Source: a virus
Virus genome (UHGV): UHGV-1575775
Reading direction: 5' to 3' (one strand)
Length of the DNA stretch: 19,468 nt
Shown: positions 6,672 to 6,893 of the stretch, piece after piece
Layout of the letters: each line of letters opens with the position of its first letter
Numbering within the stretch: the stretch's first letter is position 1
Made by a program: the position numbers and the translations under genes
The notes under the pieces: model-generated
Seen by the model: the letters and a program-made list of their open reading frames with translations, nothing else
Database searches by the model: none
What the model was told of the DNA's origin: nothing

Positions 6672-6698
6672 TGAAAAAAACGCCCACCCGAAGATGGG
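6672..6698 (-). terminator. Rho-independent terminator, minus strand
   Basis: Minus-strand gcccatc-ttcg-ggtgggc (7-bp stem with one G-U pair, 4-nt loop) followed by gttttttt; plus-strand coordinates are stem 6681-6698 and A-run 6673-6679. It lies about 190 nt downstream of the dmt stop. Confidence 0.7.
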
Positions 6699-6856
6699 CA
6701 AACTGGAAGCTCGTAACGCACTTCGGTGTTGCCACTTAGGCGTATGGTCAACCTGGCAACTCGGCGTCATGAGGGGGAAGGAGTCACTACCCCGCCATAC
6801 TTGCCGCCGCGCCTGTCGCGGCTAACAGCTAAATCGCTCTATAAATCACGATTCAT
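6672..6856 (-). ncRNA. Candidate short C1-operator-controlled transcript, or leader/attenuator of the tRNA-plp-ban operon
   Basis: Bounded by the predicted promoter overlapping the operator at 6864-6892 and the intrinsic terminator at 6672-6698. It contains an internal hairpin ccgcg-acagg-cgcgg and no Shine-Dalgarno-led ORF. Purely predicted. Confidence 0.3.
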
Positions 6857-6865
6857 TGAGGCGAT

Positions 6866-6893
6866 ATTACACTAATAAATTTATTAGAGCAAT
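6866..6893 (-). promoter_or_regulatory. Bipartite C1-repressor operator-like site overlapping a sigma70-like promoter (Op72-like)
   Basis: 6877-6893 is an exact reverse complement of the recalled P1 C1 operator consensus ATTGCTCTAATAAATTT. An overlapping forward copy at 6866-6882 (ATTACACTAATAAATTT) matches 15 of 17 positions. The minus-strand promoter has -35 TTGCTC, a 17-nt spacer and -10 TAATAT; the site overlaps the dmt stop codon. Confidence 0.6.

Follow-up and report, generated by a model that had tools for sequence, protein, structure and literature searches.

What is made from a promoter that lies within a double C1 operator at the end of dmt, and how genes behind the intrinsic terminator that follows it could be supplied from that promoter, is the question raised by this locus. 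By "the window" we mean the whole stretch of viral DNA that was analysed, 19,468 nucleotides of UHGV virus genome UHGV-1575775. The 801 bases around the site are 98.5% identical to phage P7 and ~96% identical to P1, and genomes of the P1/P7 family cover 83-86% of the whole window at ~97% identity; judged by these alignments, the source of the window is a P1/P7-family phage, a mosaic relative that differs from P1 and P7 in a longer dmt interval and in the genes at the tci position. The minus-strand gene order, uhr, hrdC, dmt, tRNA-Asn, tRNA-Thr, the tci-position genes, tRNA(CAU) and ban, is that of the P1 ban region. The hrdC product belongs to the RdgC family and dmt combines C5 and N6 methylase domains. 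Three features of this region frame the locus:

6884..9472, minus strand: dmt open reading frame, with its TAA stop codon at 6886..6884
6055..6208, minus strand: tRNA-Asn and tRNA-Thr, the first genes met by read-through
2328..3698, minus strand: ban, encoding a DnaB-like helicase; the distal gene, with expression under Op72ab control according to the P1 record

The preliminary description of this DNA had spoken of a tRNA-plp-ban operon; the tRNA genes and ban do lie downstream on the minus strand, but plp and upl are on the opposite strand and are therefore outside the operon. Some details of the neighboring genes were also recorded. Read from a GTG, the dmt frame has up to 862 codons without a stop, and the annotated lengths are 754 aa in P1 and 672 aa in P7. 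At the tci position (4082-5126, minus strand) the window holds a 275-aa SPFH/Band 7 protein (PF01145, E = 1e-30) and a 78-aa open reading frame for which Pfam has no match, unlike P1 and P7, which have tciA/terB, tciB and tciC there. The tRNA at 3979-4054 (minus strand) is called tRNA-Met (CAU) by ARAGORN, and its equivalent in the P1 record is tRNA-Ile2 (trnI, similar to ileX). The ileX-like tRNA-Ile2 encoded by trnI depends on lysidine modification.

The control elements at the end of dmt, together with a second operator farther upstream, are as follows:

6877..6893, minus strand: C1 operator half-site corresponding to Op72a/Obana, an exact match to the 17-bp consensus (ATTGCTCTAATAAATTT) and identical to the annotated P1/P7 site
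6866..6882, plus strand: C1 operator half-site corresponding to Op72b/Obanb, with 15/17 matches (ATTACACTAATAAATTT) and identical in P1/P7
6864..6892, minus strand: promoter P1ban, with -35 TTGCTC (6892..6887), a 17-nt spacer and -10 TAATAT (6869..6864)
10723..10739, minus strand: second C1 operator (ATTGCCCTAATAAATAT) at the Op68/Odmt position, upstream of uhr-hrdC-dmt

The two half-sites are inverted and overlap by 6 bp, forming a 28-bp near-palindrome; the minus-strand copy spans the -35 hexamer and the dmt stop codon, and the plus-strand copy overlaps the promoter spacer and four nucleotides of the -10. The preliminary description had proposed exactly this arrangement, an exact reverse-complement match to the consensus overlapping a forward copy with 15 of 17 matches, placed over the dmt stop codon, with a sigma70-like minus-strand promoter embedded in it. 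All of these elements are present: the TAA at 6886..6884 falls within the operator, and the promoter coincides with annotated P1ban. The hexamers agree with only 7 of 12 consensus positions and were missed by a generic promoter scan; they stand at the exact position of the annotated sigma-70 promoter P1ban in the P1 record (AF234172), with a predicted start near 6857. The 28-mer ATTGCTCTAATAAATTTATTAGTGTAAT is base-for-base identical in the window, in P1 (Op72ab/Obanab) and in P7 (Op(ban)). In the P1 record the half-sites a and b and P1ban have the same relative positions, with equivalent annotation in P7, and the operator is described there as one that "controls expression of ban". Comparison with Op72ab of P1 and P7 thus extends from the sequence and the hexamers to the position over the dmt/dam stop codon and the downstream order of tRNA-Asn, tRNA-Thr ... 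tRNA(CAU) and ban, and reveals no difference at the site itself. The identity of operator and promoter is a matter of direct observation, and on this sequence evidence we regard it as practically certain that the site is Op72ab/P1ban of a P1/P7-family phage. Binding of C1 and repression in the lysogen are predicted for the window site from the annotation of the identical P1 sequence. Two natural variants of Op72a, ATTGCACTAATAAATTT and ATTGCTATAATAAATTT, occur in P1-like viral contigs (L045 and L085); one of them alters the -35 hexamer and the other adjoins it.

Scanning of the window with the asymmetric 17-bp C1 consensus, allowing up to 3 mismatches, returned 3 matches where 0.09 were expected, a count that none of 200 shuffles reached; beyond the double operator, the sole other match is the one at 10723-10739 (minus strand). 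A spacing of about 3.9 kb between the two operators had been taken to fit the Op68/Op72 pair of P1. The second site is indeed at the Op68 position, but the window separates the two by 3.85 kb, a distance that is 3.5 kb in P1 and 3.3 kb in P7. A literature search for Op72 returned unrelated papers only. Since the P1 record annotates the operator, the promoter and a "dicF-like" stretch, the element that had been picked out is already in public annotation. The combination of operator, promoter and leader is a rediscovery of a known, annotated P1 element and, being a textbook P1 control element, the finding changes nothing by itself. What is less familiar is the RNA that lies between promoter and terminator, the parts of which are listed here from 5' to 3':

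6830..6855, minus strand: 5'-terminal leader hairpin, found in P1-type phages only (3% variable columns in 16 P1-like sequences)
6725..6827, minus strand: conserved scaffold shared with the DicF precursor (covariance model R1, 101 bits)
6822..6806, minus strand: H0, a short GC hairpin
6806..6762, minus strand: H1, with an outer stem CGGC/GCCG, an internal loop and a variable apical hairpin with a CU-rich loop
6761..6727, minus strand: H2
6800..6795 (GUAUGG) with 6747..6742 (CCAUAC), minus strand: candidate pseudoknot
6701..6726, minus strand: P1-type single-stranded tail (ACCGAAGUGCGUUACGAGCUUCCAGUU), a candidate seed region that is nearly invariant in P1-like phages
6674..6700, minus strand: intrinsic terminator, with a 7-8 bp GC-rich stem, a UUCG loop and a U7 tract

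The leader RNA is predicted to run from ~6857 to ~6675, a length of ~183 nt, in line with the transcript of about 185 nt, ending at an intrinsic terminator, that had been proposed. The terminator is real and conserved. It begins 26 nt past H2, its stem (6700..6681, UGCCCAUC-UUCG-GGUGGGCG) has a calculated energy of -12.8 kcal/mol and is followed by U7 at 6680..6674, and it is the only strong minus-strand terminator within positions 1-11200 of the window. The fold of the leader as a whole is not significantly more stable than that of shuffled sequences (z = -1.6). Between promoter and terminator there is no conserved open reading frame with a Shine-Dalgarno sequence, as had been claimed; the ATG at 6770 in the window is missing from P1, and a coding function of the leader was rejected for want of a conserved small open reading frame. 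Because the dmt stop codon lies inside the operator, the leader is also the 3' untranslated region of uhr-hrdC-dmt transcripts. The junction of tail and terminator (...CCAGUUU, hairpin, UUUUUUU) has the shape of an Hfq-binding module, for which the criterion was a U-rich stretch, a hairpin and at least 6 U, and this terminator shape makes the leader RNA a candidate Hfq-dependent small RNA. On the operon strand no promoter-like site was found from the terminator to ban, except one inside ban; as the P1 record states that Op72 controls ban, read-through of the terminator is therefore required.

The P1 record labels as "dicF-like region" a misc_feature equivalent to about 6766-6664 of the window, beginning on the 3' side of H1 and including the terminator. 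The Rfam model of DicF (RF00039), which scores 76.7 bits on the positive controls Qin and phage mEp460, gave no match at E <=10 in 6600-6900 and none at E <=1 in 3500-7500, so the likeness is not to mature DicF. Alignment of the leader with the Qin prophage instead reveals agreement from GCGCGGCGG... to ...GUGRCAAC, that is, from H0 to the end of H2; the two sequences part just past H2, ~25 nt upstream of the start of DicF. By this alignment, the "dicF-like" homology of P1 is to the ~100 nt immediately upstream of DicF in lambdoid prophages.

DicF is a 53-nt RNA formed by termination at a hairpin and by an RNase E cut at its 5' end, and dicB is expressed from read-through transcripts (PMC9438474, PMC5069750). 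The dicBF locus of Qin and the P1 leader share the ~100-nt upstream scaffold (122 bits in Qin and 101 bits in the window), which in both is followed by a tail, an intrinsic terminator and co-oriented genes reached via read-through; both are under prophage-repressor control and both lie in the 3' untranslated region of the gene before them. The part that corresponds to the mature RNA is unrelated, with no match of the DicF model in the P1-type leader, the P1-type tail is shorter than that of DicF (53-55 nt against 85 nt), and P1 has added a promoter of its own ~35 nt ahead of the scaffold. MicL and other small RNAs that are cut from the 3' ends of mRNAs resemble the present arrangement in having structured elements upstream of an RNase E-released, terminator-ended RNA (PMC9438474), but the scaffold described here is much larger, is conserved in sequence and is reused with many tails. 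The best RNase E motif match in the P1 tail (CCAG/UUUG, with the cut at the slash) lies 3 nt before the terminator hairpin, so that a cut there would remove the seed. Targeting of ftsZ by the P1 tail found no support: for duplexes with the region -80..+45 around the translation start, 56-68% of shuffled sequences did at least as well, in a crude and weak test that also fails to separate DicF itself (15%). Inside the window the tail finds no complementary stretch of at least 11 nt.

A second stretch of the window, 5100-5330 (minus strand), gives a sub-threshold match to STnc100 (RF02076; 37.8 bits, gathering score 47). It corresponds to the interval between dicF and dicB in Qin (34.1 bits; 1147-1287 of sequence L004), with which it aligns well (GCGGTGAATGCGGCTAAGCGCACGCGG ... 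CACCGGGAGGCACCCGGCACCGCA). In P1-type phages this segment lies 1.4 kb downstream, just upstream of the tci-position genes, and in P1 upstream of tciA. Its position suggests a dicBF-type cassette that was split by the arrival of the tRNA and plp-upl genes. True DicF with dicB downstream is found in functional lambdoid phages, for example mEp460_ev081 (2622-2673 of sequence L155); a 2016 paper reported that the phage databases then available contained no homologues of DicF or DicB (PMC5069750).

The structure of the scaffold was examined by comparison of its copies, and all three helices, H0, H1 and H2, are supported. The outer stem of H1 is CGGY/RCCG across copies, with C-G for U-A in the P7 type, and its 5' internal loop (AAGYRUGG) is conserved; the apical stem occurs in at least 10 different sequences, nearly all of which form a hairpin, with a C/U-rich loop that is mostly UCCUU. 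Among P1-like phages the apical part of H1 has either a P1-type or a P7-type allele, the window carrying the latter. The stem of H2 has up to 11 bp, with C-G for U-A in P1-type copies and three pairs swapped together in Izhakiella, and its loop is nearly invariant. Evaluated on 24 diverse sequences, 96% of cells are paired, compared with 27-53% when the partners are slid, and 5-6 pairs have changed on both sides, a count reached in 0 of 500 shuffles. The partners of the pseudoknot read GCAUGG and CCAUGC in P1-type copies, a few copies have a U-G intermediate, and C opposite A never occurs among ~147 copies. These changes suggest a pseudoknot between the H1 internal loop and the H2 loop, on the basis of one compensatory event and with the H2 loop partly fixed by the search pattern.

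Searches of Rfam with the leader and with the dicF region of Qin returned no family for the scaffold; the weak matches obtained, to antisense nuoG, CcsR1, RyhB (on the terminator) and a tmRNA-like model, were set aside as chance. A full-text search of the literature for the H2 loop sequence was without a match. The element itself is widespread. Scanning with the 23-nt sequence of the H2 loop placed it in more than 120 viral contigs, and BLAST found the element in 61 complete phage genomes, which take in all the P1-like phages together with lambdoid ones such as mEp460, cdtI, Ayreon and Stx2-converting phages. Of 5426 complete E. coli genomes, 4411 (81%) carry the scaffold, at 9405 places of which 506 are on plasmids and 8899 on chromosomes, and no annotation lies under it among the chromosomal matches listed. 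Beyond Escherichia and Shigella, copies are found in Citrobacter, Trabulsiella, Erwinia and Izhakiella; two further matches of a degenerate genome scan (L133 and L138) were rejected as chance. Covariance model R1 found no match in HK022 (E <=10) or in D6, a relative of P1.

A GC hairpin followed by at least 5 T lies 50-99 nt past H2 in 125 of 125 sampled copies, which had been chosen by the H2-loop pattern only, so that the tail was outside the search pattern. The sequences between scaffold and terminator fall into at least nine unrelated tail types, of which DicF is the commonest and the P1 type the shortest; true DicF is present in only some of the scaffold-bearing phages. The scaffold unit of lambdoid phages belongs to an early operon under repressor control, in which co-oriented genes such as dicB or kil follow it. 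The homology and structure of the scaffold, and its constant pairing with a tail and a terminator, are shown by these comparisons. The preliminary description had offered either a repressor-controlled small RNA or a leader/attenuator; the "dicF-like region" label of P1 and the DicF-related anatomy agree with this reading, except that a classical attenuator with alternative hairpins is not supported, as set out below.

Several observations concern particular copies of the element and its surroundings. In phages Ayreon, F1055, cdtI and Stx2c (L126, L127, L153, L154) the scaffold has non-DicF tails, and C4 antisense RNA and IsrK score above their Rfam thresholds ~2.4-3 kb from it. The pair of C4 antisense RNA and IsrK is an antirepressor control module of the P1 immI type. 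Some lambdoid and Erwiniaceae tails (L127, 3640-3790; L126, 3655-3780; L151; L152) contain AGGAG and a start codon within the terminator loop. A long hairpin (ACAAAACAGAGAAG ... CTTCTCTGTTTTGT) comes next, in which the phages differ by compensatory changes; this element could represent either an RNase III site or a small open reading frame. Phage D6 shares the terminator, the spacer and the tRNA genes with the P1 type, and its upstream region is different and without the scaffold. At 3190-3260 (minus strand) of D6 (L129) there is a short stretch (GGGGTAAGGCCGGGGATATCCCCAGGGGGAGGCACCCCCGCTGCAACG) resembling H1 together with the lambdoid linker CCCCGCTGCAACG, a second terminator-like hairpin precedes the shared terminator, and the D6 record places the tRNAs on the strand opposite to the P1 annotation. 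The prophage small RNA HnrS (PMC13502914) was considered as a relative and rejected; it is unrelated and encoded in late genes.

We propose the following course of events. In the lysogen, C1 bound at both overlapping operators would cover the -35 and part of the -10, and the promoter would be shut; inactivation of C1 would permit transcription from P1ban near 6857. The nascent RNA would present the 5' hairpin, then the ~100-nt scaffold, probably pseudoknotted, a short single-stranded tail and the terminator, where most polymerases would stop and leave an RNA of ~183 nt, a small RNA or a precursor. This terminator would also end transcripts coming from the upstream dmt operon, which would carry the same RNA at their 3' end. 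A cut downstream of the scaffold, as in DicF biogenesis, would yield a small Hfq-type RNA with a P1-specific seed, and polymerases that read through would supply the tRNAs, the tci-position genes and ban. We consider the chain as a whole, from loss of C1 to a terminated small RNA or precursor of ~183 nt and to read-through into the tRNAs and ban, to be somewhat probable; partial termination, processing, Hfq dependence and action in trans are presumed in it by analogy. With a terminator that looks strong, simple leakiness may fall short of what an operon of more than 4 kb needs. A more speculative extension, which we think less likely than not and put forward tentatively, is that the scaffold, which also lies next to DicF in E. 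coli K-12, represents an undescribed class of phage regulatory RNA that governs the adjacent terminator, either by factor-free resistance to termination or by release of the exchangeable tail. In that case one repressor-controlled promoter would serve both a small RNA and a long operon, and the tail of the P1 type would make a new early phage small RNA that acts on a host target.

A different view of the scaffold is that it acts in cis as a factor-independent processive antiterminator, doing a job like that of put with an unrelated fold. The folded nascent RNA would modify polymerase, so that a part of the polymerases ignores the terminator, and Rho in the long untranslated stretch, and the single repressed promoter would again yield both the small RNA and the distal genes. 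In HK022, the put RNAs are structured, measure ~70-100 nt and belong to an early operon under repressor control, where they precede terminators that have to be passed (PMC9378689). The scaffold resembles putL and putR in this size range, in the early-operon setting and in having terminators downstream; the helix layout is different, and an action of the scaffold on polymerase is hypothetical. Antitermination of the put type is defined by read-through for which both the RNA and the zinc-binding domain of the polymerase beta' subunit are needed. Its compact two-domain form, near-invariant loops and candidate pseudoknot go beyond the needs of a simple processing signal, and it is always found directly upstream of a terminator that has to be passed before co-oriented genes are reached, which are dicB or kil in the lambdoid phages and the tRNAs and ban in the window. 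The copy in phage Ayreon is ~300 nt past a promoter beside cI, with no N-like gene recognised; the leader contains neither a boxA-type antitermination signal nor an alternative antiterminator hairpin, and the terminator after the scaffold is strong. Against these points, the scaffold has no similarity to putL or putR in sequence or by model: homology to HK022 put was rejected, as it consists of 9-11-nt chance words only and model R1 has no match in the HK022 genome. An antiterminator needs no terminator within 100 nt, yet all 125 of the 125 copies have one, DicF is a documented product of termination at such a terminator, and in D6 the terminator, spacer and tRNAs are found although the scaffold is absent. 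We think antitermination of this kind rather unlikely.

It is also conceivable that the terminator serves mainly to end the uhr-hrdC-dmt operon, with the short P1ban transcript functionless and the scaffold and tail an inherited fragment of a split dicBF-type cassette. The terminator stands ~190 nt beyond the dmt stop codon, as would suit this role, the homology of 5100-5330 (minus strand) to the dicF-dicB segment of Qin fits a split cassette, D6 retains the terminator despite the absent scaffold, and no target of the tail was found in the ftsZ start region or in the window. What makes this account improbable is the conservation of the leader, which far exceeds that of the downstream spacer: in 16 P1-like sequences, 7% of columns are variable in the operator, 3% in the 5' hairpin, 0% in H0, 6% in H2 and 7% in the terminator, and the variation of the tail comes mostly from one sequence, compared with 35-91% in the 460-nt spacer 3' of the terminator. 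The compensatory C-G for U-A changes in the P1 lineage keep H2, the outer stem of H1 and the pseudoknot, and the scaffold is kept in 506 plasmid and 8899 chromosomal E. coli copies. A classical attenuator or riboswitch, with a scaffold that responds to a ligand or protein by exchanging terminator and antiterminator hairpins, is highly improbable. A conserved structured domain with a variable terminator does resemble transcriptional riboswitches, and in lambdoid copies the GGCGGUA of the scaffold has the sequence of the terminator's 5' strand. In the P1-type leader, however, upstream pairing with the terminator strands is no better than in shuffles (86% and 94% of which pair at least equally), no Rfam aptamer matches, and the DicF-type tail between the two is itself a small RNA of known function.

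What is new at this locus is that its "dicF-like" part is not DicF but a widespread, unannotated structured scaffold with exchangeable small-RNA tails, which has no Rfam family and is unannotated in most E. coli genomes although it lies beside one of the oldest known small RNAs. The exchangeable tails would form a natural set of small RNAs with different seeds on a common chassis. If the scaffold governs processing or read-through, this could explain how, in prophage early operons, a terminated small RNA is made together with expression of the genes behind the terminator, and how P1 could express ban although the promoter is more than 3 kb distant and a strong terminator stands in between.
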